Assembly: GCA_973895155.1 (NCBI GenBank)
Contig: OZ316893.1
Coordinates: 27,290,210-27,354,209, forward strand
Source: Marsupella aquatica
Lineage: Eukaryota > Plantae > Marchantiophyta
Reading direction: 5' to 3'
DNA length: 64,000 bases
The position numbers were made by a program, and so were the translations under genes. The notes below the pieces were generated by a model. That model was given only the letters and a program-made list of their open reading frames with translations. It was not told the origin of the DNA and searched no databases. Shown piece by piece: positions 28,431-64,000 of this stretch (positions are counted from its first letter, which is position 1; the number at the start of each line of letters is the position of its first letter).

Positions 28431-28887
28431 CATTGACACCCCTTCCATGTTAACTTATGGGCACTTAACATACCTTAAATGTCGTTTGACAAACCTTAAT
28501 AGCCGTTTGACACCCCAAAGTGTTTTCCAACCCTAAACCGATAAGACCTGCCTCGCAAATTATTTCACAAGTTAGAGAATATTTTTGCGAACCTACGACC
28601 TTCGCACTTGCTTCGCAAAAACAGAGGCCGAGAACAATTTTTTGGGTCTTCTGCGGGTTGCGATGGCTTTGCGAAGGGAATAGATTCGGAAGTGCCTCGC
28701 AAGTTGCGAGACTATTTGCGAGGGCGCGGGCTTCGTAGTTTCCCATGCGTATGTCATTGCAAACCCGTTTTTGAACGGCGTAAACATCGGCGGGAGCTCG
28801 CATTCGGGCTCATTTCAGTTTTTGAGCGAGACGAGAAGGGCCGGGGCGCGCGCAACAGTACGAGGGAGACTGTGAGAGAGGGGAGCT

Positions 28888-35410: not shown

Positions 35411-35912
35411 TCAGGTCCTCCAGCGGCTAGTCATGGTGCCCCTAGCCAATCCTCAGGGGGGTCACTATATGAAGGGTCATACATCACGTGCGACGGTTTG
35501 GGTCATTTATGACCCCTCTAAGTCACTTTCTATAAAGTTGTACGGCACCAATCATGTGATGACATGTATGCATTTTGCAATTAAATAACCCTATATTTCC
35601 ATAGAAGACTTATTAATAAGTCTTCTTCCAAAACCATTTAAATGGCCCTATACTTCGTCGCACATGATATGCCACTTCCATGGAAGTGACCCCCCCGAGA
35701 GCCAGTCAGGAGGGAGTGGTGGTGGTGGTGGTGGTGGTGAGTCACGATGTTCTACTGCCGATGGGACTAGTGGGGGGGGGTCCTGCAGCTTCCTTTCATA
35801 CTTGCCAAGGTAGCGAAGAGGGTGTGCCCTCTCATGGCTCAGGGGCTTCCCATGGTGGTGGTGGTGGAGTTGGTCCACTTCCTCATGTTGCCTCTACACT
35901 TGGGACAGACGA

Positions 35913-37299: not shown

Positions 37300-37376
37300 T
37301 AGCCCTCCACTTAAATTTTGCCGTGTCCCCACAAGACATGACCGAATTGAATCAGAAGCGAGTGACATGTTCTTCA

Positions 37377-37853
37377 TTAATAATATTCTGGCTTAATAAT
37401 CCAAGTAGTGCTCAAAATCATTGACGGGAGTTGGGAGATATCCGAATCCAGAATATAAAAATCGAGGTCATGGAATTCTTCTCCGATCTGTATTGGGACT
37501 CCTTTAACTCTTCCCCAAAGATTAATGATTCGTCCATCGATTGATATCTGAGCAGATATCGGTTGTACTTCTTGATGAACAAATTGCTGGCACAGTCTGT
37601 GGGAGAGGAAATTAATTCGAGAGCCTGGATCAATAACAAAGTGTTGAATAGCATGTCCTCCCAGTTTGATCTTGCCTTCAAAGGAATGTTGGAAAGCACG
37701 GGGTAAAGAATTCCAACAATCCATAGTAGCTTTGATGTCCCACATGAGCAGATAAATATCAATTCGAAGGAGAAAGAAGGAAACAATTGCAGGATGCTGC
37801 AAAAGTAACGGCTTATATACATATAAATGACAACACCGTTTGATATCTCTCAT
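37377..37853 (-). CDS. Retropepsin-like (aspartic protease fold) ORF with a variant active-site motif
   Basis: FVIDPGSRINFLS...DFYIL...MILSTTWI matches the retropepsin pattern hhIDSGA..NFhS...hILG..Wh, with DPG in place of D[ST]G. Confidence 0.6.
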   Translation of the reverse strand: MRDIKRCCHLYVYKPLLLQHPAIVSFFLLRIDIYLLMWDIKATMDCWNSLPRAFQHSFEGKIKLGGHAIQHFVIDPGSRINFLSHRLCQQFVHQEVQPISAQISIDGRIINLWGRVKGVPIQIGEEFHDLDFYILDSDISQLPSMILSTTWIIKPEYY

Positions 37854-37865
37854 AAATGGTGTCCT

Positions 37866-39430
37866 TCAAATCTGTGTCCTAGATAAAACACCTTGAATAA
37901 TCACATCCGGATAAGAAGGAATAATAGGTAGGAACGCTAAACACCTAAGCGACTTGAACCCTTGGGAAGCCGGTAGCATACATTGTTTTGTAATCAACTG
38001 CTCCCTTAGCTTAACAAGCTTCTTCTCATATTTAATTGGAATAGCAAACCCACCAGGACAAACCCAAACATAGTATGGATAGGGCCATGGAATTTCCGGC
38101 ACAAGGGGCGGAAATGGAGCTTGAGCTCGTCGAAGCATATACACCCAACACCAAATTTCGAACTCCGAAAACTTATGTCGTCTGTCCTTATCAATGGGAG
38201 GAACCGCCTTCCCAGGTTCATATGTGCGAATCAAACTACGAATCCTCGGATGGGATGTCATTGGCAAAATCTGCTGCTGCTGCAAAATGCTCTCCATCTC
38301 CAGATGTCGAAAAGCTACTCGAAAATGTTTCTTCTCCCACCTGTGAATTGAAGCCAAATTAGGGATAGGATTTCGGGGTGGCAAATCCACTGTATGCCGA
38401 AGTCGAGGAGGTACTCTGATAATGCGAGGGTCTTCGTCTTCTTCTCCATCACTTGGTGCTCCTATCCAACGGAAAATTACATCTGGCATAGCGGAAGGAA
38501 TCACTGACTCCTTAACTGGTCGAATTGGCAATGTAACAGGAGACGAAGGAGCAGAAGGTTCGGGCTCCAGTGGTTCAAATTCTTCTCTTGCAACAGTAGC
38601 TGGTTGATCTGCAATGGGATGCATTGGTACTAAAACAGGAAGTTCTTCTTTAAAATTATCGCTAGGTAAAGAGACTTCCTGGTTAGTTCGATCTGTCAAA
38701 AGTACAGGAAGGGGTAGCTCGTCTGTTCCGATAGGTGCTTCTCCCTGTTCAAAATCCTGGGAAGATGCTTCAGGAAAGATCTGTCGACTGATAGCATGGC
38801 GCAACCGTTTCCAAGATTTTCGAGTATACGTCACTGAAAACTCCTCCCGAATGTTTTTATCCTCGTTTGTAGCCAATGAAACTGGTGCTGAGCTGGTTGT
38901 CGAAGCGGGTGTCTCGGGTACCAATATGGGTTTGGGCTGCCCAAGCCTGAACTGCTGCTTGTCTCACTAGAAGACGAACCACCGGCTTCACTCAGTGGTT
39001 CTGGATTATCCAATTGTGAAAGATCGACAGAATTATCTTGGGCCAGCGATTCTGCAACTGTATTCTCGGGCAAACCCAAATTTCTTCCTTCGGTATGAGA
39101 TAAGGCCCTCTCAGTGGTACTATCCACACCAGAGTCAATTTGGTTCACCGAACGTACTGTCTGCTGGCGGAGCTTGGTCTTTTGAGAACCAATAAGTTTT
39201 GGACCTGAACGAAGATTTACAAACAGGGGTCGGGTCGACGTGGGCCTTTCCAAAGAGCCACTTGCCTCTTGAATAGATCCCACTTGTTTCCACACACTAC
39301 CCGGTGCAGGTGCTCCTGGTGACTGGAATTCGGGTAACAATGTGCGAGGGGTCACTACTAATTTTGCAGCATCCGAATTACTGGAGGTCTTGGTAGGTTT
39401 TCTTTTATTCGGTGGATCTCCCTCAGACAT
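37866..39430 (-). CDS. Uncharacterised retroelement ORF(s), two overlapping frames (39430-38831, 38924-37866)
   Basis: Long ORFs in the element's sense orientation, Pro/Ser-rich. I recognise no Gag motif. Confidence 0.45.
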
Positions 39431-40624
39431 CCCTCATTCTCCAAGCACGGGTGATTTTGAGACACCAGACCCGCTCCTCAGGAGTCTTTATGCAAGGAGT
39501 CACCATTTAGGTGCGACGTTATCACCCCACTCCGGGAGATATGAACCTGCTTCCTCAAAGTGACTTCCCGTAGCGTCGTTCAACATCCCTTGCATGATTC
39601 CTCCCCCTTGCTATCCCGTAGCTAATACTTCCCTTCAGTGACCAGCCGAGATTCTAAAACCTCGTTTTCTCTGGTGCGTCCTTCAGGTTGAGACGCGGAA
39701 AGGCACACCAGAAGCGTCGCGCACGTTGGTTCGTCACAGATTCCACCGGACGCTGCTCACAGCGTCCACTGGGATCGGACGCTACTCGAAGCGTCCTGAC
39801 TTGCGGAATCTTCTGGGACGAATCGCATTGGACGCTCTTCGCGGCGTCCTTCCTTATCTCCTTTACGGTGGCGATTACTGGAACCGGGCGTTCCCCATAA
39901 TCTCCGACTTCCTTCACCCTGAAATTTCTTTACCACATGGTACGCTACACTAGGCCATCCTACTAATCAGACGTCTAACTCCTTCCTAATCTTCTACGCA
40001 ATTCCTGGTGCATGATTCTTTCCGCTAACTCCCGAATGGAAATGACTAAATATCACTCCTGTGTGATCCTACCATTCAGCCTTAATATTACTAAATGCAA
40101 ACTTTCATCTTCCCACCAGGTGATAGTTAACCAATGTATGCCATTCCTCCCTCTCAGGCTCAGAACCCAAGAATTAACATAACGATTCCTCAAATTCCTA
40201 ATTCTTAATGTTCCCAAAGATCGGATAGGTGGCATCGGTCACACGAACCAGGATGGTTGGACAATTTTACAAATCATACGTCCCGAGCAACGTTAGAATA
40301 ACTTCACTTGTCACTCAAAGTGTCTTTGGTGTCTTCGACTATCTCCAAAGCAACTTGACGAGCAACAGCTCCTCTCTGTGAGGCCTTTTCTGGTGGGAGG
40401 GCGGTTTCTTCTCTTAAGTTTGGCACCACAAATTTTTCCAATACTCTTAAGAGAGCTTCCGGGGCGCTTTGGATAGAGTACGGCATCACCTCGAAATGGA
40501 AGCTCTTCATCTTTTTAACTGGAGTGATGACGCATCTTCACAATTATAGTAGAACGTGAATTCCTCTCCCGTCTAGCTCCTTCTGGCATACACTGCCTGT
40601 ACGTCAATTCAATCTTAAATTCGT

Positions 40625-40642
40625 TCCCCGGCAGCGGCGCCA
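40625..40642 (-). promoter_or_regulatory. Primer-binding site complementary to the tRNA-Asp 3' end
   Basis: Minus strand TGGCGCCGCTGCCGGGGA, separated from the 5' LTR by 6 nt; Athila-type PBS. Confidence 0.85.
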
Positions 40643-40648
40643 AAAAGA

Positions 40649-42035
40649 TGTCGTATAGTGCTAAGTATCAAAAGTGACTCTCCTCACCTAAAACCAGGGT
40701 TTCGATCCCTTTAAGAACAGATTTCAGAATGAATTGTATAACTTTTATCACTCCGAGTGATTTAGAGTCTTGAGCTCTATGTTGACTTCACTTCTCAATA
40801 AAAAAATCGAATAAACAAACAACAAAGTAACTGAACTTCTGATTTATGAATTAGAGAAGAAATGAGTAAGGATTTAGAGACTACAAGCTACTGCCACTCC
40901 TTCAGAAAGGATTTGGGCTCAGTATAGACATGAAATCTATCTCATAATTCATCCATCTCACTCTTCAAAACACAAAGGTTAATGATAATGGAATTCTCAA
41001 TCTGATGAAGCAGAAGCTTTCTGATTGCAAATGAATGATATGATTTAAAATGCCGTCAACATGGTTTGACATCAGCGATACGCAATTCAGTCAAACTCTA
41101 AACCATATTCCAGAATCAAAGCAACAGTACTAACTACTCTGAGAATCAGAATTTACTTCTCATTTATCATTAACTATTCTTGAATTGGCTAGCGAATCCC
41201 GACTCTGCAAGCAAGCCTAGCAGTGAATTCAATACGAGTTTCAGAAATCTGCAACTGAATTCAATCACCACAGGAATCTCTTGAATTCAATCTTAACTTC
41301 AATCAATATAGCTTTACTTCCATACAAAACACTCACAGCATGCCTTGTTACAATGGAAGGAGGAGAAAACTATTCAGAAGACTCAATTCTGAATACAGTA
41401 TTAACTCTATTTCTCTCTACTTCAAATGAGCATTCTACTCTGTCTTATAAGTGCTGGAATCCTAAAATGGAGGAGGTAAGAACAGTCGTGCCTTTCCAAG
41501 CTTAAAACTAAACAAGGGAGAAGCACAGCATAAGTACTTCAACAAGGGTGGTAGAATACTACTTTACTAGTAATCTACTTCAAAAACTAAGTGTTGAGCG
41601 GACGCTGCTAGAAGCGTCAGGAGAATCTGGACGCTGCTAGAAGCGTCTTAAGTAAAACCAACGGACGCTGCTCACACTGCTCACAGCGTCAATACTAGGG
41701 TGGACGCTGCTCACAGCGTCGTGTGTTGAAGCTGACGCTTTCCACAGCGTCGGTCGAAATCCTCATAGAGTCTTGGTGGCGGTCGGGCACTGCCAAAAGC
41801 GTCATGAGGAGGTTGGACGCTTCCGCAGCGTCTTGAGTAAAAGAAACGGGCGCTGGTCACAGCGTCGGGCAAAGTACACTAGGAATCGTCAGGAAAGCCG
41901 GAGATGTCAAATATTTCTATAAGTGTCCAGAACAAGTAAATGTTGGCCGGAAGGTGTCTAAAGTGTAAGTAAATCTTGTGATATGCTAAAAATAAACAAG
42001 TTTCCAGAAAAAATTGCAGGGACACCCATACCATA
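40649..42035 (-). repeat. 5' LTR
   Basis: Same length as the other LTR and identical in spot checks, except the terminal CA to TA change at 42034. Confidence 0.95.
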
Positions 42036-43179
42036 GACGACCTGGACCAAGCCAATATGGACCAGACCACATTCACCGAGGCTTCTCCACCCCCACCTCC
42101 ACGAACTTGTTCCAAAAAGAGGAAGGGACGACATACTCCATTTTGAGCTGGTAGCAAGTCAGATAGTTGACCAGCATATGCAGAGTAGAGGCCTAGTGTG
42201 TTAGGGCACAAAGTGTAGACCATATGGGGCAAGCTGCTATTTCTTATTTGATCCGAGTGGATCACACTTGTACATATTGGGGTCTATATGTATATATTCA
42301 TTTTAGGGGCTTGAGTACCCTTTTTGGCCATGCATGGGTTCTAATTAGATCTATGTTGCATGGTTTTTTCAATAAGTTCCAAAATGCCTCCAAAACACCC
42401 CTACACCTAACCCTAACCCTCTCCCTCACCCTAACCCTAACCCCCTAAATATGCTAATAAGCGTGGCATCCCCGCTTCCCAAAGCACTCTTTCCGATGCC
42501 ATTCCGATACTTAAATCATCCCACTCCATCCAACCAAAACCACGGACTTTCCCATTCCAGAACATTTGGATCTTCCGAATCTTACCGCATTGGAACTTGC
42601 AATACTACTAATATTGGATATTCCGATGTCTTAACCAACGGACACTAATCGAACACGAACTAAACAGAACAGGCGACAAAGTGGTGGTCCGATACTTCCG
42701 GCATCGGATAGTAAAATATCCAATATTTTAGATTACGGATGGTCCGATGAAGGTAATATCGGTGTTTCCAATAGTTGTCCGATGGTCTATATCCGATGTG
42801 CAAAAAATGGCATGTACCGATGTTGTGGTAATCGGAAGTTCCAAAAATCTGGTCGCAAGTTGCCAAAGGTTTCCGATACTTTCATTGTCGGAAAAGGGCG
42901 ATAAAATGTACTAGTGAAACAACACCCTCAGAAGTGCTCAAGACTAATGTACTTTATGTATTTGTCATCAAAAGTGCATATTTATTTGAAAGTTTTCTAG
43001 AACTTCAATTCAGCTAAAAATTTGCAAGCATGATCTTTGAAGTGTAATCTACTTGCTGACAAAGTTCTAAACTTTCTGGAGTTGGCTTACTTGCTTTCTA
43101 ATCAGGTCTACATTAACTCATTTTATATTTGTATTTTGCATCAAGTTATAATTAGTTTTTCTTTTTAATTATTAAATTT

Positions 43180-44760: not shown

Positions 44761-46105
44761 GAGTTTTCCTCTCAAGCCTCATTTTTCTCATGGATGTGTG
44801 TATGTGTGACGCAATCTAAGTGTATAATGGGACCAACAGTGCCAATGAGAGGTGTATCGGGTGCATTGAAGTGGGTTGGATGGAGACTGTCATAGCTCTG
44901 ATTGCTGGGAGTGGAATGGCATAGCAATGGGGCGATGGCTTAGAAGTCCCTAAGTTAGAAATGCTTGGATCACTAGTTTATGGGTACATTATGGCAGCAA
45001 AATAGAAACATACCTACGGCAGTAAGCATATGTATAGACATATACTCACTATAGCGCTAGGCCCTATGTGTATGGGCTTGATATGAAGACCCTTTCTCAC
45101 CAAAACTATCATGAGTGCAGGATTTGATTCTCAACCTTGGTTCCTTGGGATTGAGCTTGGGTGATGTATGTGTGAAAAGTCTTGCTATGATAATATGACA
45201 TTAAGGGGATAAACTGGTCTTTACTAGCCTTCATAGCATTCCTTCGTGATTCTCAGGTACAATGAGACATTTTTTGCACCCAATAGTGAGGTTTTTGGTG
45301 TTAAGACCCATGTTAATTGCATGATATTTTGGCGCTAGATGGAGGGGATGGAGCTATCACAACTACATTTTGACTCAACTTAACGTTGCCTCACAACAGG
45401 CTAATCTCGACGTATGAAACTCTAAACGGAAACACGGAATCCCCAAGGTAAAATTGGCAACGTTCTGGACGTCTATATTGACGTGGTTTCTTACGTCGTC
45501 TCACACAACGCACATTGCCACACCGCCAACGTGGTTCTTTGTGTGCACGACGTCCTATGCATCGTTAGAGTACTGGGCTAATGTAGATTTCCATGTCCAT
45601 TGAACGTCGCACGGAGTGACGTTAATACAAACAAAACGTCGTGATTGACGACGTTGACTCCCTCGTATAAGACAACGTCAGTGTTTGTAACGATGTCTGG
45701 GACACCATTCCGTTTGATGTAATGTGAATTCGTTCATTGGTTTACGTGGTGTGATAAGACGTTGTTATCATATATCAATGTCATGAACGACGTTGTGTGA
45801 AAGTGGAAGACTACGTCTGGGTCATACCTTGTGAGATGCTTGGTAACTTTATGAATGAACGACACCCCGTATATTATGTCGGACCCTGCCATACAACCTT
45901 ATTGGAGGTTATAAACACACTTAAGCTAGGGTTACAATGGGGTGAGCATTATTTGGGTAGGCAGTTGGGGTTTAGGGATACACATTCAATATGCATATGG
46001 TATAGACGTTGTAATCCGCGAAAAGTGTCGTATTAGATAATATTGTTATGGGCCAAATATGTACAAAATGGAGGATGAAGTCGGGCAAGTAAAATAGGCT
46101 ATACC

Positions 46106-48271
46106 CTAGTCACGCTCAGTCCGCCTGGTATCACGTCCAGACCTGCGTGTAGAAGTGGGTTGTACGCCTCTCGGGCGCAACTCGTACCTGGAGTCATCCT
46201 CCTCTAAGCTAGTGGTACTGGGGGACAACGTATCTGCCTGTGTTGCAGCCCTATGAGTAGTCACTGGCCTACTCCCCTTACTGTGTGGAGGTCGCCTAGT
46301 GTCATCCCTCCTCCTCCTCTCCCTCTCCCTCCCCCTCTGTCTATCTGACCTATCTCTCCCTATCTCCCTCTCTCTCCCTCCCTTGGCTCTCTCTCTCTCC
46401 CTCCGGCCTTGGCCACTAGTACGCCCCCCATGAGTCTCTGCCTCCTCCTGCCCGCAATCTACGTGAGCCTCCTCCTGCAAACCCTCCTCGGGCGGTACCC
46501 TGGCTGGCAAGTGATCCTCAGGGATGGCCCGTGCAACCAAGCCCTCCGGAGGAGTCCAATCCTCCACCTGCATGATAGCATTCTGGTCAGTTAATATCAC
46601 AGAGTAGGCCTAAAGTCAACTACAACCTAGCAATCACTTTAGCTCTTACCCGGTGATCCTCCGGGACTGAGGCCAACTTGGCCCATAGCGCTGCCGGGCC
46701 ATACCGTTTCGAGTACAGCCGCTCCTCCTCCGACGGCTCGGCATCGACACCAAACTTGCGTTTCTACGAGAAAGCAAAAGAACGTCGTTCCTAAGCACGT
46801 ATTCAACCCTCTCAGCATCGGTGCTAACGTCGTTCCATGCGTTGCATATCTAGTTAACGTCGCTCTAACGACGTTTTCACTAAAGCGGTACATGTAACGT
46901 CTCAAGGATGACGTTCTTCCTAAGGTACGTCTCAGATGAAGTTACAAATCAAAGTTAACGTTGTTATGGACGATGTTATGAATGAATCAGGCGACGTAAT
47001 TTCAAAATCTCGACGTTACACTATGGTTTACACCGGAGCAGCGAAATGAAAACGTGGAAGTTGGGTCCGAGACTTACGTAGGTTGCGAGGAACCCTCGCC
47101 ATCCTCCTTGCCCCCAGAAATTGGTTACTAGAAGGCGTCCGCTATTCTTTCGAGCTGCAGTGGCTTTGTCACCCATGTGCACTCGTTTTCCTACGGGGGT
47201 GTTTGGGGGTGCTTCAAGTTCAGACACGATCAAGTTGAAGTCCGACTCGGCCATCCCTTCAGGCTTACGGTACTGCCCTGTCTTCTCGCATTTCATTGCT
47301 CGGACCTTGCTTCTCCACCTGAATCTTCTGTCAGCAAGGAAACTCACAATCTTCTGCCTGATGTGTCGAAAATCAATCTCTCTGCCATTCTTGAATCCGG
47401 CCTGTATGTCATTGAGGAGTACTTGAAACTTCTTTGTATTGTGCACGAGGTCCTTCCAAGTTGTCCACCCAGGGCAGTGTTTCGTACAGCAGACCTGCAC
47501 TCGATTCGTTAGCGCCTTCTCATCAAGCACCTCTGGCTTCGCATCAAAAGCAGCCAGGCTGATGACCGGCAGTTGTTCTTTGCTGGCAGGAGTAGCAATG
47601 GTTCGGTGAGGAGAAGCTCACCGATGACCTCCTCCGATTGAATGTGAATGTCGATGTGACCTTCGACCTCTCCTATCTCTGTCCACCCTCAAATCTCGTT
47701 CAGCCCTTTTTCTCTTGTGTGTGCTGCGGCTGTCTCTTTCTTTGCGCTCCTTTCCCTTCCCCTTTTTTTGTCTCCTCTCAATGCTACTATTGCTACTCAA
47801 AGAATGGGAGCGACGTCATCTTCTGTGTGTCCGCAACTCTGTACTTGAATCATCAGGCTCATATCTCTGAATCCTCACTTGGCTCTTGATGGGAGTAACA
47901 CAGGGTGGTTGTGAATCCGGCTCCATCCCAGAGAACGAGGGATAGTCCCAGACTGAGTCCATCAAGGGCGGGAAGGAAGCAAGAGGATCAAGTGATGCCC
48001 CCGGAAGGTCGCGCAAGAACTCTGGTGCTTGAATGTCGGGCTCAACGTCGGATGCTGGAGCGTTCTCTTCTATGTTCTGAAGGTATTCCAAAAATCGTGA
48101 CTCCTTCGTCCCAGTTCCTCCCATGAATTGCCAACTCTGGTTGAAAGCATCAATCAGTGAATGTGCTGACCGCAAAGCTGTTCGAACCTTCTCCACCTCC
48201 TCTGGGTCTTCCATGGAAACTTTCACAGCATCAAAGTTGATACTGAGGGGCAGATAAGCTGGACGTGACAT
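46106..48271 (-). pseudogene. CACTA-3 TnpA-like gene, frameshifted; exons ~48271-47078, 46763-46650, ~46580-46106
   Basis: Motif TNFWGQGGWRGF|GT parallels CACTA-1 VHKLGQGGLPGL...F|GT. It has a similar short middle exon and a basic low-complexity tail. Confidence 0.65.
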
Positions 48272-48789
48272 TGAGGCAAGACTTGGAGCAAATGTAGATG
48301 ACCTTCACAAAGATTAGAGCTTCACTAGAGCTTCACTAGAGCCACAAACAGAACAGAACACTAGATGTGGGGTGAGGTGTGTGCGGAATGGTCGAATGAC
48401 TCACATTCGACACTATGCCCCGGTATTTTCCGAATAGAATGCGGTAGAGTTCGCAACAATGTGTTTCCGCCATTCTCTGTCTATTTACGTCGTTTTTCAT
48501 GACGATGCCCTAATTGATCGATTAGTAATACGTTGTGCTAGACGACGTTTTCATTTAAACGTTGTTCTGTACACCGTTAAAAGGTAGGGTTTACTGTAAC
48601 GTCGTGTGGGGTACGGTACATGACATAGGGTTTAAGAAATACGTCGTGTATTGTGTTCTCGGCGACGTAAAGTGAAAGTACTTCGTTTTACTTGACGTAA
48701 ATATTGTGGTACTATAGTGGTCCCGACGTTCCATTTCCAAGGCTGAGTTTGCAAGTTTGCGTGTATATGTGTGTGTACTATTGCAGGCC

Positions 48790-50273
48790 ATGGCCTCGTG
48801 CTCATCGGAGTGGTCATCTGATGATCGCTATGATGGAGGTGCATATCACCGAGACAGGTACCGCTCTCATGATAGGGGGAGGGAGAGGAGGAGGGAGCAC
48901 TCACCTGCGAGGTCGAGATACCACTCAGCCGAGAGGAGGAGGGACTTATCATCTGATAGGAGCAGGCACCATTCGTCTGAGAGGAGTTGGGATCAGTCTT
49001 TAGATAGGGAGTACCGATCTAGGGATCATCGACATCGGGAGCGACAAAGGCATAGGAGGTCCCATCGACAGTCCCACCGCCACCGCCGGTCCAGGTCTCC
49101 CTCTGATGACCACACACCCCGACACCGATCACCCATGCCGGAGGATGAGGATAGGTTTGGAGAGGCCATGGCTGCCCTTCAGGGGATTGGCCCAGTCCGA
49201 AAGATGCCCTGCCCATGTAGTAGATGCAAGGGCGTCGTCTCCCACGAGAGGACCACTGTCCTTAGCCATTTAGGCCTCCACGGCCGTTACGTACCCCCGA
49301 CACATCAGGTAATTCATAAACCTTTATTGACACTATTCAATTCATTAAGTCCTTATTTTTGAATATAACATGTTTGGGTTTCTTGAGTTTCTTGAGTGTT
49401 TAGTTGGAATGGTTTTTTCCCTGATTTCTGAAGTTCTCTTGTTCACATGTGAAACAGATTTTGTGTGTGGTCTCTCCGCCCTTGGACCACATGAGACAGG
49501 TTGCACGTCGCGCGCTCACAGCACTAGTTCCCCCATCAGCACTCGATGCCACGTTAAGGGCAATAGACCGTGTTTTTGATAGGAGGAGGAGGGTCATTCG
49601 GAGTCACCCTATTGAGAGGGGAGTAGAGGTCACCACTAGACCTCGGTCCATTACGTCTCGTACCCCTAGGACGGTGCCGCCACACTGTCCTTTTCTTGAT
49701 GCCTCTTTTTCCCGAGCACCAAGAGAGTTAAGAGGGAGAGCCTTGGACATCATAAAGGACTCATTCCCAACCCAGTTTGGCCTCCCTATGGTCCTGCTCG
49801 TTCGGGAGCCTATTGTAGTTTGGGATAGGCCATGGGTCCTCCTCCCATCCACATTGGGAGACGACGTAGGTCTTGGATTATTTGCGCTCGTGGATATTGT
49901 GGTGCCGGAAGGTTGTGCACCTGAGGACCTGCCCGAGTTGATTCCATTTTATGGGCCAAAGTATTCGGCCCATAGATGGCGTATCTTGTCTCGCCAATGC
50001 CCAACCTTTGGTCGGTATGGCATGTCACTAAAGTTGGACCCTAGGTATACTCAGATGGATGGTTACCCCCCTCGTACTGGAAACTTGGCGGGTTACATCA
50101 ATAGCACAGTGGGGTGTCGGCGTTTGGGGTTCCGCCCCAACGCTGAGTGGCATGAGTACCATGACCAGAGTCACCCTCGTTTGCCCTTGGGATGCAGTCA
50201 CTACATCCTGACACATGCCACCCGCACCATTCGAGCAGGGGATGAGATATTTGTAGACTATGATTGGCATTGA
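48790..50273 (+). CDS. Transposon-encoded SET-domain protein (alternative terminal exon); exons 48790-49308 + 49500-50273, ~430 aa, open
   Basis: Exon 1 is RS-rich and carries CPCSRCKG...HLGLHG. SET motifs GLGLFALVDI, FYGPKY, GNLAGYINST and ATRTIRAGDEIFVDY. Phase-0 CAG|GTAATT donor and ACAG|GTT acceptor; an alternative in-frame acceptor exists at 49458. Confidence 0.8.
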
Positions 50274-53200
50274 AGATTATATATGTTATTGATCACTTAT
50301 TCATTACTCAGAGTGAGACTTAGATTGGATTCTTTGACCTTCATTACCTCATGCACTATTGGGAACACATTGTCTAATTTGGGGATGACCTTATCTAATA
50401 TTGATGTCTTGCATAGGATGGTCCAAATATAACACCTACACCTCATCCATCGATGATGACGGAGTCAGCCCGTTCGTTCCACATGCGAGCCACATTATCT
50501 TTTTCTGACGACGAAGATGTTGAGAGTGATCATGTGCATGAGGACGAGGATGTGGACGAGGATGTGAATGAGTACCATGATGCACATGATGACGATTTTG
50601 ATGAAGATGTAGAGGATGATATGGATGCACCTATTCTTGAAGAGGATGCTTTTGCGCACCTTGTGGACATCCACTTTGGACCTCATGTACCTGAGGGTGA
50701 CCCTCCTGTCATGGAACTAGACGAAGATGATTGGGACCAATTGGAAACTGAATCCAGGACTCCGCTATTCCAGGGTTCCCTGACCTCACGGTACATTTCT
50801 CTGAGGTGCTATTATAGTTTTTCTACTGTAATGTTGCTTAAGGGTGTGCATAAACCCTAAGTCCCCAATTGGACCATCCTCAATGGCATGCCTTAAACTA
50901 ATTAAAAAGCTGGTTTCTTTGTGGTTTTCAATGCAAATGCAGGTTGGGAGCCACACTCTTGATGTTGAATTTACAGGGGGTTTTCAATGGATCAGATGTC
51001 CATATAGATGCACTCTTTGCGTTGTTCCACAACAAACTCTTGCCTCAACCTAACAACCTTCCAGGAAGTGTGAGGGAGGCTAAGAAGTTGTTATCATCTA
51101 TCGGACTGGCGTTAGAGACTATACATATGTGCCCTCATGGGTGCATCTTGTATAGAGGACCGTACTTGGACCTCACCCATTGCCCAATTGAGCGATGTGG
51201 CCTTCCACGGTATCGTCCTGATACCATTGGAGACAAGATTGCTGAGAAGGTAATGACATCCTCTCTGTACCACATCTGTATTTTAGTAATTTTTGACGTA
51301 CTTTATGGCGTTTTGTGTCCCTTAACGTTGCCCTCATGAGTAGTATGTCTTTCAACTAGAAGTAAATAACCCTAACGTCTCCCTTGTGATTTTTACGTCT
51401 TTCCATACGACGTTTTTTAGTCCAACATCGATTTTTGCAACGTAAAAGTTTAGAGAACGTAGATCTGCTCAACATGAAACTATAACGTCGTTCTGGACAA
51501 CGTTCACTTTTAGGATACGTAGTTATGTTCAATATAGAAGTAATACGTCGTATTGAACATCGTAAAGATTTTTGGAACGTAGTTATCGTCAACGTATTTG
51601 TGATGTTAATGACGAAATGCCGCCTCATGGTTGTTGTACATTCAGGTACTGAGGTATTTTCCAATCACACCCCGATTGCAGCATCTATACCGACGAAGAC
51701 ACCTATCCTCCCTACAGACTTGGCATGCCGAGACCAAATCCCCAGCAGGGATAATGCGGTATCACCAAGATAGTCCAGCATGGAAGCACATTGATGCCAC
51801 ATGGCCAGATTTTGCTGCAGAGCCACGGAACGTTCGGTTGGGGTTGGCCATAGATGGGGTAAACCCATACAAGCAGCGACGGAAACCAAAGTCCATTTGG
51901 CCAGTTCTTTTGATAAATCAGAACATCCCTCCATGGTTGGCGATGAAAAAAGGTCATGTTCTCCTCCTAGCTATCATTCCCGGTCCCGAGGCTTGCAAGA
52001 ATCCAGATGTTTGCTTGGCCCCAGCTTATGAAGAGCTACATGACTTGTGGGAAATTGGGGCTCCAACAACAGATGTCACCCGTGCACCGGACAATGGGAG
52101 GACATTCAACATGAGAGTCATGATCACCCATTGCACCACTGATGGGCCCGGTAATTCAAAAACCTTACAAAATGTGATTATATTGTGCTAAATGACTTTA
52201 TGTCTTCATTTGGCTTCTTTTATTGTGGGAATATGATGGGGTTTCCTTGGCAGGCATGGGCACAATATCAGGCTTGAAGGTGGCTGGGTACTCAGGTTGC
52301 CCTTCATGTGGCCCTGAGTTGCATGGGAGGTACTCAGTACTATTGCACAAAACCACATATGAGGGCAGCAGGATGAGATTGTCAATGGATGACCCCATGC
52401 GATGTAACACAAGACATTGGGCACAGACTGAGTTAAGACCATGTCCTAATGCGCCTTCAGCAGAAGCTCAAATTCAAATGGCAGAGATGGTGGAGGCTAA
52501 GCTGCTGAAACCCAAAGATTGTGGAGTAAACCGACGCTCAGCATTGTGGGACTTGCCTTATTGGAGGGTAGGTACAATACACCTATCAAATGTTGTGTAT
52601 AGATTTTTGCATCAACTCTCATAATGCTAGAGTTTTTCACTTGATTACCATGTTGTGCAAGCAGATGCTCAAGATCCGGTGGCTACTGGACCCCATGCAC
52701 ATTGAAGTGAATGTCGCAAAGAATTTGGTGAAGCACATATATGGTGAGAATGATACTTGTGGAGTTCGTGTGGATGCAAAGAATGTAGGAGTTGTGAAGA
52801 GCTGTTGGATATCAGGTACATGATAAAACATCGATCAACCCTTAATTTGTAAGAAGTTGCCCGGATTTGCCTGAAACCCCAAACCCTAACAAGTTGATTC
52901 TCTTTAATTATTGGACAGCACGTACTGGGGTGACACCACCAGCCCCTTGGATTTTGCCTCGAGACATTCTGAAGGATGTGAATGGGATGATTTGTGAGAT
53001 GAAGTTCCCGAGCCATTACGGAGCTGGATTCCGTGGGTGCACAACGAGGAATGAGTACATCCCCCCGATAGGGTTGAAGTCCCATGATTATCACAAGTTG
53101 ATACAGCATGTGCTCCCTGCAGTGTTGCGTTGTTGCGATGATTCTAGAGAGTGCCACCTACTCCGACTCACAGTGTACGAGTTGTGCTCCATTTTCAGGT

Positions 53201-54705
53201 TGGAAATATCTTACTCGTGGATTTTGTGGTGTTATGGGACCATAAATTTATGGTGTCTCAAACGACATTCTAGAGAGGATACGTAGTCTCTTAATACTTT
53301 ACGTCATCTATAACTAGGTAATGTAAAAATACGACTCCACATACGACGTATTCAAGGTCGTATAAGTCACCCCTCTTCAGGAACGTCCTGCAGAGCGATG
53401 TTTGTAGGAATCTTAGTAGAGGGAATGTTAGTAGGCATTGAATTGGTAACCATCTTAGCCCACTTTCAGATTGGGCGGTGATATTTATTCCTGTCATGTT
53501 TTTGAGTGCCTCATAGGTGGGTATGTGCCAAGGAGATCAAGGAGTCAGAGATTCCTTTGATGAGGGAGAGGACGGCGCAAGTGATGTGCAATTTGGAGCG
53601 AGTGTTCCCCCCAGCACTGTTTGACATGCAAATGCATTTGCTATGTCACCTGGTGGATGAAGTTGCCATTGCAGGCCCAGTCCATGCCCGATGGATGTAT
53701 TGGGTTGAGCGATATATGAAGGTGCTCAAGGGTTGGGTGCGTCAACCCGCTCGACCTGAGGGAAGTATGGCAACAGGGTTCATTATGTCAGAGTGTCTTT
53801 TCTATTCCGGGGGGTGATAGGGAGTTTGGATAGCAAAGCTCCCACAACTTGGGAAGAGGCACAAGATGATGACAATGGTGGGCTGCGATTGATGGGTGCG
53901 GCCAAGAAGCGATCATTGGATGATGACATCTTTCGTCGACAGATCCATAATTATGTGTTGGGGAATCGACCGGAGATGTCTGATTGGAGGGAGATGTATA
54001 GGTATGGTACTCTAAAATTTTAATCGATTGTGAATTGGATTTGAGAAGGCTGCAAATCTCTAACAATCTTGTGACAACGTATTTGGCAGTGCATGGTTGG
54101 AGCTTCAAGTGGGAGTTGCGCAAGCAGGTCATGGCATTGCATCATTTCGTGTCTGGGCTTTGGAGCGCATGGAGAGGCTCTTGGCTGTGCATGGGTCTAC
54201 ATCCATTCCCATTGATGTACAAAACATCATTAGAGGGCCAGGGATGCGGGCCACGACTCATACACACATGTATGAGTCAGGGCATCACTTTCGGACTTGG
54301 AGGACAGACCATATGAAGAAGAGTACTTGTAACTCTGGAATCTTCATGATGACTGATGTAGATGATGTAGAGGTTCCTTATTGTGGGACAGTTGTGGACA
54401 TTTTAGATGTTCATTTTGGGTCATTTGTCACCACTGTACTAGAGGTGAGGTGGCACAAGTCGATCATGTCACCCCCAGCGAGAGCTACAATGGTTGCGGA
54501 TGAGTGTGGTTTTTATCGCGTGGACACAACCCGAGTTGCACCCACAGGGACTGAGTTTAGTGACACCATAGTTTTTCCTAGCCAAGTGGATCAGTGCATT
54601 ATGGTTCCGATGCAGACCATGAGAGGATGGTCCATTGTCATACCAATTTTCCCTCGGCGAAGGAAGGGCTTCATGGCATCTATCCTTGCAGACGATGCGG
54701 ACTGA
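48790..54705 (+). pseudogene. CACTA-3 TnpD transposase; exons 48790-49308, 50417-50790, 50943-51249, 51646-52150, 52254-52567, 52665-52815, 52919-53198, 53517-54001, 54090-54705
   Basis: All GT-AG junctions are phase-compatible. Motifs HMCPHGCILY, RNVRLGLAIDG, DPMHIEVN, LKSHDYH and WMYWVERYM. One apparent frameshift lies in the G-run at ~53809-53814, which could be a sequencing error. Confidence 0.88.
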
Positions 54706-55341
54706 CACTATCCTTCACACTCTCCATTTATATGTATTGGCTATGCCCACCTTCCACATATATATTGACATATGTTTCGACGTTTGAGATCTGGCAAACT
54801 GGAGGGAGAGTTGTGCAAAGTTTCTTCTTTCCTCACTTTATAGCTAAGAACACATTAAAAAGCATTAAACCTCGGCCTTCGAACAACCTTCAATGGGTCC
54901 TAGCACGTAAACCCTTATCACGTAGGCCAATTGACACTTCGAACTTATTAACGTCAACTTCAACGTCATTAGACAATCAAAGGTCCCTTATACCCATAAT
55001 GAAGACGTTAATCTATAGTTACGTCGTAGATACGTTGTACAAACAACGTATACATAGTACGTCCTTGGTTTACCTCGTAGTAGACGACGTAGATTGTGTT
55101 ACCGTGTCTTAAACGACGTAAACGTTTATTTAACCATTCTTCTGATGACGTTCAAAGTTTCAATCGACGTTACTCACAAAACACATTACAAATATAAATT
55201 GCCTGGGAGGGACTTTTTATTCATGCGCTCAGAAACATACAACGTGCACATAAGGCATGAGTCTGACTCCAGTCTAAACTGATTCCAATCCTAGGCAAAT
55301 GATGCTCCTCCGTCTCCAGCTGACCTTGGCACTAGTGTAGC

Positions 55342-55809
55342 TTAAGGGGTCCCTTCACCAGACCAGTAGTACTCCTCATCTGCCTTCCTCTTTTTGTACG
55401 AATCACGCCTATTGCTGGCGTTCCATTTCTTGCGGACCACTGCTTCACCAACCTTCAGCCTTTCAGCCTCAATCTCAGCTGCACAGCTTTCCTTGTAGTC
55501 ATACATCACAATATCAAGTTCAGTCGGTGACAATTGACATTTAGCCAACTTTGGTGGACAAGCCTCACCATCATCATCCTTGGGCGTATCGTCCAGCATC
55601 AAATCGTCCCCTGGATGCAGCAAAAACTCTTCTGGGTCCAACTCCTTATTGCCCAGAATGGAGTACTGTACCCAACAAATCGAGATGAAATGCACGGACT
55701 CTGCAAAGTGCTCGATCAATCCAGGATAGTCACTGAAGTGCTCTGTGACTTGTTTCCAGGTATTGGCAAGCAAGTATTTCGTCTTTGAGTTACAAAACTT
55801 GTCTATCAC
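55342..55809 (-). CDS. Extra ORF of unknown function inside CACTA-3, convergent with the transposase
   Basis: 155-aa open frame with protein-like composition and a basic C-terminal cluster. No domain recognised; the start is uncertain. Confidence 0.4.
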   Translation of the reverse strand: MIDKFCNSKTKYLLANTWKQVTEHFSDYPGLIEHFAESVHFISICWVQYSILGNKELDPEEFLLHPGDDLMLDDTPKDDDGEACPPKLAKCQLSPTELDIVMYDYKESCAAEIEAERLKVGEAVVRKKWNASNRRDSYKKRKADEEYYWSGEGTP

Positions 55810-56714
55810 ACCTCCACGACAAAAAAGCCACGAACAGTCTTGTCTTCTTCACCTAGCGGAAGAAAACAACAGTGGACATCCTTGAATATCTTACGTACCA
55901 TAGCTGAAGACTTTCAATCTCACTCTGCAAATTCTGTGCACTATCGTACCCGTAGGACATCTGAAATCACGAATGACCTGTGCAGTGAGGTCCCAGTAGC
56001 CTTGCCCCAAAAACTCCCGCGAAAAACCTTACGCATGCCAATTGGATTCCATTAACGTCGTTTCCCACATTGGTCATATACGTCTAACATCGCCCAACAT
56101 CCATTATACGTCATCATAGCATAGTATCCGTTATAGCCACGTCTGAAACAACGTACATCTATACGTCGACCCAACCCTATTCTGCTACACCGTCTGGGAC
56201 GACGTCTACATGTTTGCCTCGTTATAAAAGACGTAAATAGCCCTATTGGGAGATACGTTAAATTAAAGACCCTCTAGACGACGTAAAATGGGAAGGAAAG
56301 TCAAATGGGTAAACCCATTTTGGGTTACGATGTAGAGGGAGATGTACTGGGGAGTAACGTCGTGTCACATGACGCGAAAGGAAGTCACGACGTAGTGAAA
56401 TGTAGTTGTGTATGTTGTGATGCTAGTAAGAATTTTCATCTTGTGAGGAAGAACTAACTATCCTCTGTTGGTGTTGGATTTCAGTAGTGCAGGAGTACGT
56501 ACAATAGGGTGAGCAATTGTGTACATTGGCATGCTGAGGAGGAGGTTCTGGCCTGTCGGCATGGGGAATCTCAGCTTGGAAGGAAGCAAAAATAGAAGTC
56601 AGTTTGGCTAACCTAACTATTCTATCTAACCCGTGGCCTCGAGCTAAGCTGCTATCTTTTGTTTGTGTCCGTTGTCCGTTGCTGTGGGTTTGGTCTAACC
56701 CAAATCCGAATCCA

Positions 56715-58878: not shown

Positions 58879-61800
58879 CTAAACAAAGTGCTCCTTACAA
58901 TATTTATTTGAGCACGTGCCTTTGTCTCCTTTACTATCTACCCTAATGTCACGGTTGCAACTCCCTTTATCTTCAGGGAGATGAAATTTGGTGGTGTTGT
59001 TCCTAACTGCTATAATCTCCCACAAAAAGTGTCTGGGATTTTCTCTATACAGACCTGAATATTCCCGTCCTACAAATGATCTAGCAAGTGAGGTGACAAG
59101 TGCATCGTCAAGTTCCACCTCAGGACATAAGCTACATATACGGTGCTTCACAGCCCAAGGAATCTCATTGCTATTGAGGTCCAGCACACTATGCCTATAT
59201 TGTGACTTCCAAATTTTTGCTGCACATCTCTTACTAAGTTGATCATAAGTAATCTCATTTTTTGCCTTGTCTCTCTTAATGTGCAATAGAGACCACTTTG
59301 GAGAGTTTAGGAGAAGATAACAACGAATGTCACTTGCATGTGACAGTTTCTCAAGACATGGCCAAAGAATTGTTAGAAGAAAATTGTCTCCACGATTGGC
59401 ATGCGTGTAGGGCAATGGAAATAGTCCGGTCATGTCTGGGTTGGCAAATGCCTTCAAGGGGGAGTCATCCACAAGGAGTGTGTTGGTTTCATCATATAGA
59501 TTTCCAAATGCACTCCATACCACCCGAAAATCCTTCAATAGCACATTTGCCTTTCCATTTGTAATGTCACGCCTTTGAATGCCTGTGTCAAAGGCTTCCA
59601 CCTGTGTGAATACAAACTTCAGTTTCAACCGCTCCTCAACAGTGAACATCATGTTCAACATTTTCACTATTTGCGGCATCCCAGCACATGTCCAAATTGC
59701 AACGTCAAACCGGTCAAAAACCAACTTTAGAAACTCATGGAGCCCTGGCCTCTCTGTATACATGCGACTAGTTCCATTTGATCTATCCCAATGCACTCCA
59801 TTTGGGGTCACAATGTTTCTAGATTTGCCCTTGCTTTGGAATTCAAGAGAATCCCAAAGTATTTTGTTAAGATCCAAAATCAGCAACTTCCGCTTGATGG
59901 GACAAGGTCTCGATTCTACAAGTGCAACAAATACAACTCTTAGAAGAAAACCAAATTTGAACTTTGGACTGAGATTGTCTCAGTCCAAAATTTACAAGAT
60001 TACTAACAACAAAGAAACCCTGGGCCCTCAGCGTTACTAATACAGGGAGGACGTGCGAACAACGCAAGGGTATTTTTAATGTAATACAAAAAAAAATTTA
60101 TAATAAGTTTTAAAGTAGGCAACATCCCTGTATATATATTCATCACAATATTAGTAATAAGGCTCTTATCAAATACATGTCACATTATTCTTACGCAAGG
60201 GTACCCAAAATGCCAAGTACACACGTCACTATATGGTTGAGACACATAGTTATAGTCATCACCTCATTTGCACACGTGTTCATATAGTAAATCAGACATT
60301 TAATTATTTGTTGTCTTAAGGCAAGTTTAGTTTTGTGGGACCCTTTATGGTGGGACAAATGGTTTTGGGTAGACATGTTTACCCACATGTTTAGGAGTTA
60401 AGTCAGGAGTTGAGTAAATGTTGGGAATCTGGGATTCATGGGGATTCATGGATCAACCCCACATGGACGGACAAGATTACTTTTGAATTCTCTTGAATCA
60501 AACAACCAGGTATGAGGCTAGATGTGTTTGTGTGTGTAGGGGGGTATCGGGTACTCAACCAATGTTTGTTATAGTTGGTTCAGACTTTGGAGTATTATTC
60601 CTCAATTATACATATAGTACTCATGAAACTAGAAGTTTAGAGGCATTGTTGCGAACACTAAGAGGAGAGTGCATGCCTGTTTGTATACTATAGGAAGAAC
60701 TATTCTTGTAGTGTATTAATTTTGTTCATCTATATAAAATATGTATCCTGAACATTGGGCGTAACAGCCATACAAGTCCCCTATGCAGACTCATCTATTT
60801 TAGTATGATATTTGCAATTTTCAAAATTCAAGGGTGTTTTCAATTCCTTGAAAAACTCTATTATAATTTACAAAAGGATAAAATTTAATAGGAAAAGTTA
60901 ATATTTTTACATTAACAAGGAGATTTTTTTTGTGAACAAAAATATTAAGAAGGGGTACACGGGGGGTGTATGTTCTCAGGGGGGTTCACTTAATATAGTA
61001 AGAGTGAGGGCCCAGGGCAAAGAAAACCTACATACCATTTTTAGAAGCCCCAAAGAGCGTAGGTGGATATCGAGGCTCTAATTGTTGACCGTATTCTGTG
61101 AGACCGAGAAGTATTTTAGATTGGTATGAAAAAATGGAAAGTCAGACGGTTTGATCTTAGTCTGAAAAAAGAGATCCGTATTCATCAATAATGTCAACAC
61201 CCAGCTCCTCTTGGATTTCAAAATTGACATCTGAAGTACTTTGTTCTACCCAATAAGGTGACATCCAAACAGGAGTTATCAATCCCAATTCTCCTCTCTT
61301 ATACTCCTTCCTGTTAAGAATCGATGGAGCAGCATCCAATGAAACTTCTTGGCCTCTATTTGGCCCACTTTTCCACATGTAACATCGTGCATCACGTTCA
61401 AGTGACCTCCATCCGGTTGATCCAACTCTATTCCCTTTTTTCTTTGAGAGAGGAAGGACAACTGGACTTCCCGAGTGTGAACAAACAAAAACCAATTTGT
61501 CATCAGAAGCTGAAAAGAGTGTGTTAGGACAAATTGAAGCACCTGCCTGGTTGTCAACAGTCGCTGATGCACGGGCTTCTGGGGTCATGGGAATCTCACG
61601 TACTTCGAAAGCCGTCCCGGGAATCAATTCTTGGGTGTCAGCTTCATTCGAATCGACCTGCCTGTTTCCACCGTCAGTGACCAAATTGGTTGACAAACGA
61701 TTTTGAAATGTATCAATGTCAATCGGTTCTCCGTTCATTTCTCGTTGCACCACATTTGGATTGAGACCATCCTTGTCCAAGTTGTCATCAACCTCAACTT

Positions 61801-64000
61801 CATAGGGTTCCACAGGGACGTCATCTGCACTTGATGAAGGGCGTGGTGCAAGACCAACGTTATCATCAACATCGTAGGGTTCTATGCTTTCACTTTGACC
61901 TACACGGTCATCCAAATTCTTTGCATACGCCACCTCTGATGCCCCATCATCTTTGATTGACTTAGCGCCCACTTCTTCAGAATTATCAACTGATTCATGT
62001 TCGGCACAAACATCCGCAATAGTGGGTTTCCAATGCCTAGAACTCCCACCACGAGGATCCCAATTTTCCTTGATTGAGGAGACCCTCTCACAAAGGAATG
62101 AAGCATACGCTTCCACAAAGTGTCTCTCATCTTGAGAGTCACAATAAACAAAGCATTTGCGTTGCACCAAGAATGTTGTCTTCATCACTTGACCACCCGA
62201 GAAAAATCAAGAATCAAGTCTCCAGCTTCTGACAAGGATTCAATAATCCTCTGTATCATCCGCGTGGGTTTGGCATGTGGATTCACCCAACCACCACGAG
62301 CACCAACTATCTCAAATCGAGGGGCCATGTGCAAAACCTTGGTTGCCTCTTCTGGGGTCAGCATCATTTTTAGATCTTCGGGTTTTGACACGTCGTCTGT
62401 GTCAACCTTCGCCTTCCCAGTGTCAATCTTGGTGACCTCAAAATCAGTATCTTTTGAACCAAAAAAGAATTTTGGCTTTGGGTGATTGGGTTTGAAAACA
62501 TCATTCCAATTGACATTTTTATCTCGAGAAATTCCTGCAAATATAACTTCTTCAATTCCGCCTCCCCAACACGAATCAAGCGGGTGCGGTTGATCCTCTC
62601 GAGAATAACTCCCATACTCAATGTGAATGGTGAGAGATTTCTCTTGTCCCAATTTTCTAAGTGAGCTTAGGACATTCATTGCAAGAGGCCCCGGATGAAC
62701 AGTTATGGCTACAACGATTGTAAGATTTCATGGTAGCTCCACAATGTATTGCAGAAAGACCAAAACTTCTGCTTCTGTCCACAGCTTCTGGTGATCTCGA
62801 CTGAAGTCAACAATGGCAAGTGAGCACGTTGGAGATGATTCTTCTATTGCTGGTGGATCAACTGTTTTCATTAGATTGTCACTAAAGAATGTGACCCACG
62901 GTTGGCTCCGAGAATGTGTCCCTCCGCCAAACTTCTGGCAATAAATGTCATCAAGGTGCATCACCAGAGCTATTGGCAAGATTGCACTCTTCCTGGTATG
63001 ATTTGGCTTCAACAGATTTGACAAAAAAACTTCACCAGCCGCTCTTCTGCATCTACTGAATTCTGCATCAACACTCAACAATGGCAGAACCTCTACTACT
63101 TTCTTCCAGTCGGTATCCGACGGGAAATTCCGTGGATCCTTGCCGAAGTAGTACTCTTCAATGAGAGACTTGAGCTTCCTCACTTTTTTCACATCCTTCG
63201 CAAGCTCCTCTATTGAGGGTATGTCAGATTTATTTGTGGCATCTTTCTTCAGCAATGCCTTTCTTGACTTCACTTGTGTCAGGATTTTTGTGATGTCTTT
63301 CTGTGAGATCAACTCACCATCAAAGGGACGAAACATGGCAACGGTAATTGCTTTTTTGGACTTGTTATTTCCTTCCACCCCAGCTCCATCAGGAAGTTTC
63401 CCATGCAACCACATCTCACAGACTAACCGCCACAACTCAAAAAGATGGTTGTCCGCAAAAAGTAGCCAGTATACATTTCGCAAGTCCTTCCTACCCATAG
63501 TCATTCTTGCCAGAGCCAACCAATCCTACAATCCAAAAGGAAAGCTAGTCAGTTATCCCCAACTCAAGGGTTGGAAAAAAAGGATTCTAAGTGCAAAAAT
63601 AGTTTTGGATTCCGATGGTCTCAATCAAAAACAAAACTCGTACTAAACATTCCAAAAGTTCCAATACTCTTTGACAAATCGTGTCGGACTGAGACCATCC
63701 GAATCCAATATAAAATTACTCTCTATGGTAGAGAAATGCACACAAAGTAATCACATTTCTTACCTGAAATTTTTGGTTGTCTTGAGCATTTGTTTTGTTG
63801 TCGCCATGTTTTGGTTTGTTTGGATTTCCACATTCAACAAACTGCCGCCTCGCATGGACAACTGTATCTTTAAAGCAAGACTGAAACACCATCGTGCTAT
63901 TGATGGCGTTCGATCTCATGGAGTGCTCAACAAGAATTGAAGACGGTGTGCGATCAGACAATATTCTGGATTTCCTAAATTCTAACTTCTTGGCCAACTG
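58879..64000 (-). pseudogene. Decayed multidomain gene: unknown N-terminus, degenerate N4/N6 DNA-methyltransferase-like domain, acidic linker, FCP1/NIF (HAD) phosphatase-like domain; runs off the window
   Basis: The ORFs join through in-frame stops (62728, 61157, ~61142), one frameshift in a T-run (DLILDF[F]SGGQVMK, ~62203) and a phase-1 intron (~61034-59916). NIF motifs LLILDLN, ERPGLHEFL, VAIWT, LLKDF and TLLVDDSP. MTase-like motif NPHAKP...IIESLSEAGDLILDFFSGG. Confidence 0.7.
60018..61017. mobile_element. 1000-bp non-autonomous TIR element (MITE) with an 8-bp TSD, related to the P-like element ends
   Basis: TIR CCCTGGGCCCTCAnnnTTACTA at both ends. Perfect TSD CAAAGAAA at 60010-60017 and 61018-61025. 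Confidence 0.92.

Follow-up and report, generated by a model that had tools for sequence, protein, structure and literature searches.

Two distantly related CACTA transposons, CACTA-1 and CACTA-3, lie in a stretch of 64,000 nucleotides from the liverwort Marsupella aquatica (GenBank assembly GCA_973895155.1, contig OZ316893.1), hereafter the window, and each carries an intact exon encoding a SET domain inside the first intron of its transposase gene. The layout, fold and conservation of this exon, as well as its linkage to the transposase TnpD, are established by the comparisons described here. The preferred explanation of the whole, held with slightly better than even confidence, is that a single transcript encodes either a zinc-finger-like segment joined to the SET domain (finger-SET) or the transposase, with finger-SET predicted to mark the chromatin of the element. 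New in this analysis are the presence of two deeply split SET subclades side by side in one window, a corrected splice acceptor, and transposon ends that read CACAA.

Organization of the SET exon

In CACTA-3, exon 1 (48790-49308, + strand) encodes an Arg/Ser/Asp-rich tract and a CxCxxC..H finger resembling PF13963, and ends at a phase-0 donor. It is followed by intron 1a (49309-49457, +; 149 nt, GT..AG, six in-frame stops), the SET exon (49458-50273, +; 271 codons and a stop), an AT-rich spacer of 143 nt (50274-50416, +), predicted to serve as the 3' untranslated region of SET and as the branch and acceptor region of TnpD, and TnpD exons 2-9 (50417-54708, +; Transposase_21). The corresponding parts of CACTA-1 lie on the - strand, with exon 1 at 26933-27166 (Ser/Thr-rich, with a CxCxxC..H finger and a phase-0 donor), the SET exon at 26005-26820 (271 codons and a stop) and TnpD exons 2-3 at 22582-25854 (Transposase_21, DUF4218 and DUF4216). 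The spacer between SET and TnpD measures 143-150 nt in the two elements.

The length of exon 1 is divisible by three in both elements, the donors read GTAATT in CACTA-3 and GTGAGT in CACTA-1, and the CxCxxC..H motif matches PF13963 at E values of 8e-4 and 9e-3, below the Pfam cut-off, in agreement with an earlier sequence-only reading of this DNA that described a first exon with a Cys/His motif and a phase-0 donor (49308; 26933). The Arg/Ser/Asp-rich tract of CACTA-3 (48790-49150, +) resembles splicing factors, and the corresponding segment of CACTA-1 and of the related locus L001 is rich in Ser. The TnpD acceptors (50416/50417 in CACTA-3, 25855/25854 in CACTA-1) are in phase 0, as had been read. 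The elements had also been called complete; both ends are present in each, yet neither TnpD is intact, the reading frame of CACTA-1 being interrupted by a stop at 25084-25086 and shifted near 22700, and that of CACTA-3 shifted near 53808. Despite the broken TnpD, the SET open reading frames (ORFs) of both elements are intact and run through to their own stops. Aligned over 258 columns, the two ORFs share 33% identity (E 9e-34), which bears out the proposal that the SET exons are homologous throughout.

Three in-frame AG dinucleotides precede the SET domain of CACTA-3, at 49433, 49457 and 49499. Of these, the one at 49457 is the most likely acceptor, with the exon starting at 49458: in the homologs P0004 and P0008 a Gln stands exactly 12 codons ahead of the point where the helix begins and lines up with the CAG at 49455-49457, and a diverged contig (runs X1 and X2) keeps this CAG and the next codon and shows four synonymous codon changes within 49461-49481. 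On these grounds the AG at 49499 was set aside as acceptor, and the exon start at 49500 given by the earlier reading is probably 14 codons too late.

Selection on the SET exon

The ratio of nonsynonymous to synonymous substitution rates (dN/dS) between CACTA-1 and locus L003 is 0.15 in the SET core and 0.10-0.16 in TnpD, and for the whole SET exon it ranges from 0.22 to 0.42 among CACTA-1-like families; values between the deep clades were set aside as near saturation (proportion of synonymous differences, pS, 0.59-0.75). Within the CACTA-3 family, 39 of the 40 best-supported variants (of 193 rows) fall in the exon, and 29 of these 39 are synonymous against 24.5% expected. Two points temper these figures: the synonymous count comes from the best 40 of the 193 variant rows, with a binomial test that ignores transition bias, and single copies compared with their family consensus give dN/dS of 0.48-1.58, a pattern of neutral decay, as inactive copies would show, in which six of nine contain stops. 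Neutral decay of single copies together with constraint between families indicates selection acting on the transposing lineages, as for TnpD, and the SET exon, judged by these substitution patterns, is under purifying selection.

These results bear on the idea that the SET exon was picked up passively from the host and does nothing for the element. The neutral decay of single copies and the more distant homologs in gene models of Ginkgo and Adiantum would fit such a capture, but the dN/dS of 0.15-0.42 between families, the fixed position of SET across lineages that are 33% identical, and the SET ORFs intact beside broken TnpD in the window stand against it; passive capture is hardly credible, and the selection tests largely refute it. 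The fixed position and the constraint between families likewise uphold the earlier view that the arrangement is old and retained.

Homologs and linkage to the transposase

A profile search with the SET exon recovered 159 clusters (at 50% identity) at E <=0.001, of which 91 reach <=1e-10; the named members come from Riccia sorocarpa and Calypogeia fissa, and more remote ones from Ginkgo and Adiantum. Neither viral contigs (0 of 41 candidates) nor prokaryote genomes (0 of 20) yielded a relative, and the BFVD matches are generic SET proteins at <=25% identity.

Among 23 metagenome loci, TnpD lies downstream of SET in 18 and exon 1 upstream in eight, so that 21 have one or both; the remaining two (L019, L022) each hold part of SET at the end of a contig. 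The expected linkage of SET to TnpD is thus present. Loci L003-L023, that is 21 of the 23, are copies of one family, and the independent count is therefore three further families. In these three, phase 0 holds for the donor of exon 1 and for the acceptor of SET wherever the contig extends that far. In all, five families (CACTA-1, CACTA-3, L001, L002 and the L003 type) have exon 1, a phase-0 GT, a phase-0 AG and a SET ORF, with intron 1a spanning 111-149 nt and containing two to six in-frame stops. The TnpD acceptor then comes after the SET ORF, with the L002 contig ending about there. This acceptor is an AG in most metagenome copies, altered in L020 and off-register in L007.

In a tree of 61 rows, rooted at the midpoint and with several long outer branches, the SET domains of the window belong to separate subclades (support 100/98 and 95/93) within a single 43-row clade (99/94). 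All rows with known CACTA context lie inside this clade; Ginkgo, Adiantum and two Calypogeia rows lie outside. CACTA-3 is 36-40% identical in SET and 47-49% in TnpD to CACTA-1 and L003, and these two are 73% identical to each other in SET and 88% in TnpD; CACTA-3 is thus the outlier in both, which fits co-descent of SET and TnpD, in a comparison from which some Riccia SET alignments were too short for use.

The gene models P0099, P0147, P0059 and P0076, from Ginkgo, Adiantum and Calypogeia, are distant members of the SET family with different N-termini. They may be captures by other elements, representatives of a donor family, or domesticated copies.

Identity and predicted activity of the SET domain

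The assignment to the SET family holds in both profile and structure comparisons. Both SET ORFs score above the gathering threshold of PF00856 (24.1 and 24.7 bits against 22.4), with the match confined to the C-terminal half of the profile. An AlphaFold model of the CACTA-3 ORF, built on an alignment of 23 sequences (predicted local distance difference test, pLDDT, 83; predicted template modelling score, pTM, 0.69), has SET8 as its best Foldseek match (E 3e-6); superposition on SET8 (1zkk_A) gives a Z score of 12.4 with a root-mean-square deviation of 2.2 Å over 121 residues. PRC2, SET8, SET1/MLL and SET7/9 all reach Z scores of 11.4-12.5 at 16-26% identity, and since the top scores are tied within 1 across subfamilies, neither a SET subfamily nor a target lysine can be named. 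A single-sequence phmmer search of the PDB gave no SET match; a search of the PDB with a 45-sequence profile gave one at E 2e-6.

Canonical SET domains are described by the motifs GxG, YxG, (R/A)xxNHS and ELxxxY. Among both 23 and 45 homologs, the GxG, F/YxG, GxxN and GxE..Y motifs show little or no variation, and in the 45-homolog alignment, whose mean column identity is 23%, at least 90% of rows keep G126, G152, G198, N201, S202, G247, E249 and Y254 (numbering from 49500). Two features depart from canonical SET domains. The NHS motif reads NS, its His being absent, and the SET proteins of the window stop three residues past the catalytic Tyr. They thus lack the post-SET segment, which in canonical SET domains closes the pocket for S-adenosylmethionine (SAM) and helps to bind it; neither pre-SET nor post-SET has a Pfam match. 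The product is predicted to be a SAM-dependent lysine methyltransferase, and catalysis is regarded as probable.

These peculiarities lend some weight to a different role reached through the same splicing, in which the SET protein would regulate the element by acting on non-histone targets, such as the TnpD or TnpA-like protein of the element or host factors for silencing or splicing, or as a non-catalytic binder, for example a dominant-negative partner with the shared finger. The minimal SET domain without post-SET, the tied Z scores with no histone-specific subfamily, and the splicing-factor-like, RS/RD-rich exon 1 of CACTA-3 all agree with such a role. The near-invariance of the cofactor and catalytic motifs in so divergent an alignment, however, argues for catalysis, and the PDB sequence nearest to the 45-sequence profile, which also lacks the His (YINFS), comes from a structure that contains a histone H3 peptide. 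A role without catalysis, or on targets other than histones, is treated as possible though not favoured.

Sharing of exon 1 with the SET exon

The proposal that the SET protein and the transposase share an N-terminus has gained indirect support. Beyond the phase-0 pairs in five families, the in-frame stops in intron 1a mean that splicing alone can join exon 1 to SET. The CACTA-1 SET ORF has no Met until residue 142, and hence none before motif I. In the Logan protein P0031, finger and SET lie within one ORF, as a transcript or an intronless variant. Exon-1 sequence is joined to SET in gene models of Riccia sorocarpa (P0033, P0041, P0058) and Calypogeia fissa (P0196), and an exon-1 profile matches 10 of 231 proteins at a domain E below 1.

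The SET domain might instead be a separate nested accessory gene, comparable to PAG2 and to the SET gene of HarbingerS transposons, expressed from a promoter of its own and starting at its own ATG or in another first exon, the sharing of exon 1 then being incidental. A Met lies <=12 codons past the acceptor in CACTA-3, L001, L002, the L003 family, P0001, P0003, P0005 and P0006, as such a gene would allow. Against it stand the late Met of CACTA-1, an upstream intron of merely 111-149 nt, the synonymous conservation of the codons between acceptor and Met in CACTA-3, and the single frame of P0031, and this arrangement is considered improbable.

A SET segment spliced into the transposase, giving a SETMAR-like fusion of SET and TnpD, is suggested by predicted models in which parts of SET are joined to TnpD (P0079, P0082 and P0114 from Riccia; also P0042, P0061 and P0100). 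The point at which SET is cut varies from model to model and mostly lies ahead of the catalytic Tyr; moreover, the stop right after the Tyr motif is conserved, and no donor ahead of the SET stop is common to the five families, which makes a fusion of this kind very unlikely. A dedicated search for longer fused homologs of 603-2000 aa found none, although a representative search had given models of that sort.

Proposed mechanism

Under the preferred reading, a single pre-mRNA would yield two products that start from the same zinc-finger-like exon 1. Use of the near acceptor, with a 3' end predicted to form in the 143-150 nt spacer, would give the finger-SET protein, and splicing past the SET exon to the far acceptor would give finger-TnpD. 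The finger-SET protein would then methylate a histone lysine at copies of the element, making their expression or movement easier. Alternative splicing between the SET and TnpD acceptors is regarded as quite probable, and opinion is evenly balanced on a chromatin target of finger-SET that serves the element.

Several observations count against this reading as far as the transcripts are concerned. The joins of exon 1 to SET in Riccia and Calypogeia are gene predictions, and six comparable predictions have SET spliced into TnpD instead. The Met within 12 codons of the SET acceptor in four of the five families (CACTA-3, L001, L002, L003) makes a separate start possible. No joint of 49308 to 49458, 49500 or 50417 appears among the rows shown for four contig runs (X1-X4, from two studies), which cover the introns and whose missing joints carry no information on expression. 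A scan for polyadenylation signals found no AATAAA-like signal in the 143-nt spacer of CACTA-3.

A broader version is offered tentatively and is thought rather unlikely as a whole. In an old bryophyte CACTA lineage, the choice of acceptor would constitute a two-state switch in one gene, possibly set by chromatin through intronic polyadenylation, whereby a finger-guided histone methyltransferase would unsilence copies and the transposase would then move them. Chromatin-linked control of intronic polyadenylation in host genes is described for the ASI1-AIPP1-EDM2 pathway (PMC9292364).

Structure of the two elements

CACTA-1 occupies 21827-31716 (9,890 bp) with CACTA terminal inverted repeats (TIRs), the target-site duplication (TSD) AAT and TCGCAA-type subterminal motifs, and CACTA-3 occupies 45358-56410 (11,053 bp) with a perfect 13-bp TIR starting from CACAA, the 3-bp TSD TAT and ACGTCG-type subterminal motifs. 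Both thus have the TIRs and the 3-bp TSD of the CACTA/EnSpm superfamily. The terminal pentanucleotide CACTA/CACTG is present in CACTA-1, whereas CACTA-3 has the variant CACAA on both sides (45358-45370 and 56398-56410), one base off CACTA, which motif-based annotators would overlook. Earlier candidates for the ends of CACTA-3, 48411 and 55337, were discarded because their TSDs did not match. Transposase_21 (PF02992) matches at E 1e-39 and 2e-38, and DUF4218 at 5e-33 in CACTA-1.

The subterminal motifs cluster near both ends of each element and differ between the two. Intron number, estimated from tblastn segments and GT/AG candidates, is two in CACTA-1 and about eight in CACTA-3. This agrees with the difference in intron number that had been noted from the letters alone. 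The ACGTCG-type motif of CACTA-3 is also clustered internally and in TnpD introns (46800-47020, 51300-51630, 53280-53360), and these clusters could be candidate binding sites for the element's own proteins.

An acceptor-like AG stands immediately 5' of the ATG of exon 1 in both elements of the window, which suggests a non-coding exon upstream. Divergent, head-to-head genes lie upstream on the opposite strand, at 28876-29631 (+) in CACTA-1 and 47021-48304 (-) in CACTA-3; the 47021-47617 piece of the latter is homologous to the former (25% identity, E 1e-6), and the CACTA-1 ORF is 54-63% identical to ORFs in the same place in L005, L006 and L008. By position these genes are putatively TnpA-like; the divergent ORFs of neither element have a Pfam match, TnpA families included. 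A further ORF within CACTA-3 (55342-55848, -) is convergent with TnpD and has no Pfam match.

Other features of the window

The region 15515-20978 (-) contains a series of long ORFs broken by a few stops, about 1,700 codons together, beginning with PHD fingers (PHD_NSD, E 5e-8). A 456-codon piece of it, with no Pfam or PDB match, carries a CEIFFSKVGG motif reminiscent of P-element-type transposases, and the region is possibly another DNA transposon with a chromatin-reader domain. A further CACTA-like end occurs at 42916 (inverted CACTA, with a CCGAT/ATCGG motif cluster at 42500-43000), and the stretch 33900-42916 also has, at 34805-35452, an 81-bp tandem array. Positions 35911 and 40647 bear an identical direct repeat of 300 nt or more, and sequence recurs at 37052/41788 as well; this suggests an inserted LTR (long terminal repeat) element, and a weak Asp-protease match lies at 37380-37865.

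An intronless ORF for a NIF/FCP1-like phosphatase (E 2e-15) adjoins long unannotated ORFs (58879-59979, -, and 61157-63525, -), and together they are possibly cargo of another mobile element. An ORF for a 2OG-Fe(II) dioxygenase (DIOX_N and 2OG-FeII_Oxy) at 11295-12332 (+) is probably a host gene.

Relation to known systems and implications

The maize transposon En/Spm produces TnpA and TnpD from one pre-mRNA by alternative splicing, and TnpA counters silencing of the element's own promoter. In the present elements, by contrast, the alternative product is a predicted SET enzyme, and the TnpA-like candidate is a separate divergent gene. SETMAR/Metnase is a domesticated host gene in which SET and transposase are fused in one protein. 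It likewise places SET and transposase sequences in one transcription unit, but here a multicopy transposon carries the exon, and each transcript would give one product or the other.

The SET exon of CACTA-1 and CACTA-3 is a single 271-codon exon with PF00856 alone, in TnpD intron 1 of a canonical plant CACTA element (Transposase_21), with no DNA methylase and with exon 1 likely shared, and this description sets it apart from the Plavaka gene PAG2. PAG2 of red algae, described in bioRxiv 10.1101/2025.02.11.637652, is similar in that an EnSpm-superfamily transposon stably carries SET (PF00856), with chromatin modulation proposed. It differs in being described as an accessory gene that lies next to the transposase locus and has SET fused to an N6-adenine methylase. 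The same source mentions captures of SET by Helitrons, and SET genes on HarbingerS and oomycete MuDR elements are cited in PMC12730594. According to these two sources, HarbingerS, MuDR and Helitron elements are DNA transposons encoding a SET histone-lysine methyltransferase, as predicted here, but they belong to other superfamilies and hosts and carry SET as accessory genes and not as an exon within the transposase gene.

A functional parallel is offered by VANDAL/VANC of the MuDR superfamily, whose anti-silencing proteins induce hypomethylation, as shown by experiment (PMC12730594; bioRxiv 10.1101/2025.02.11.637652). A transposon protein acting on the chromatin of its own element is the role suggested for finger-SET; the role of VANC is experimentally shown, whereas that of finger-SET is a prediction. 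Chromatin writers encoded by transposons are cited on the basis of Repbase entries and genome papers, and among them the same excerpts name VANDAL alone as proven to modify its own sequence.

A full-text literature search, with subscription journals, Repbase Reports and bioRxiv supplements outside its scope, found neither a SET exon sharing the first exon of a transposase nor a land-plant CACTA element with SET in the transposase intron. The novelty proposed by the sequence-only reading is accordingly kept for the SET exon in the transposase intron, within the reach of those sources, and given up for SET on DNA transposons in general, which is already published, EnSpm-superfamily Plavaka included.

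If the preferred reading is true, these elements, with counterparts in the liverworts Riccia and Calypogeia, would provide a testable land-plant case of a transposon that writes histone marks, and would represent a new route for coupling anti-silencing with mobility. For the annotation of bryophyte genomes, some gene models labelled as SET domain-containing are transposon exons, which inflate the counts of host methyltransferases.

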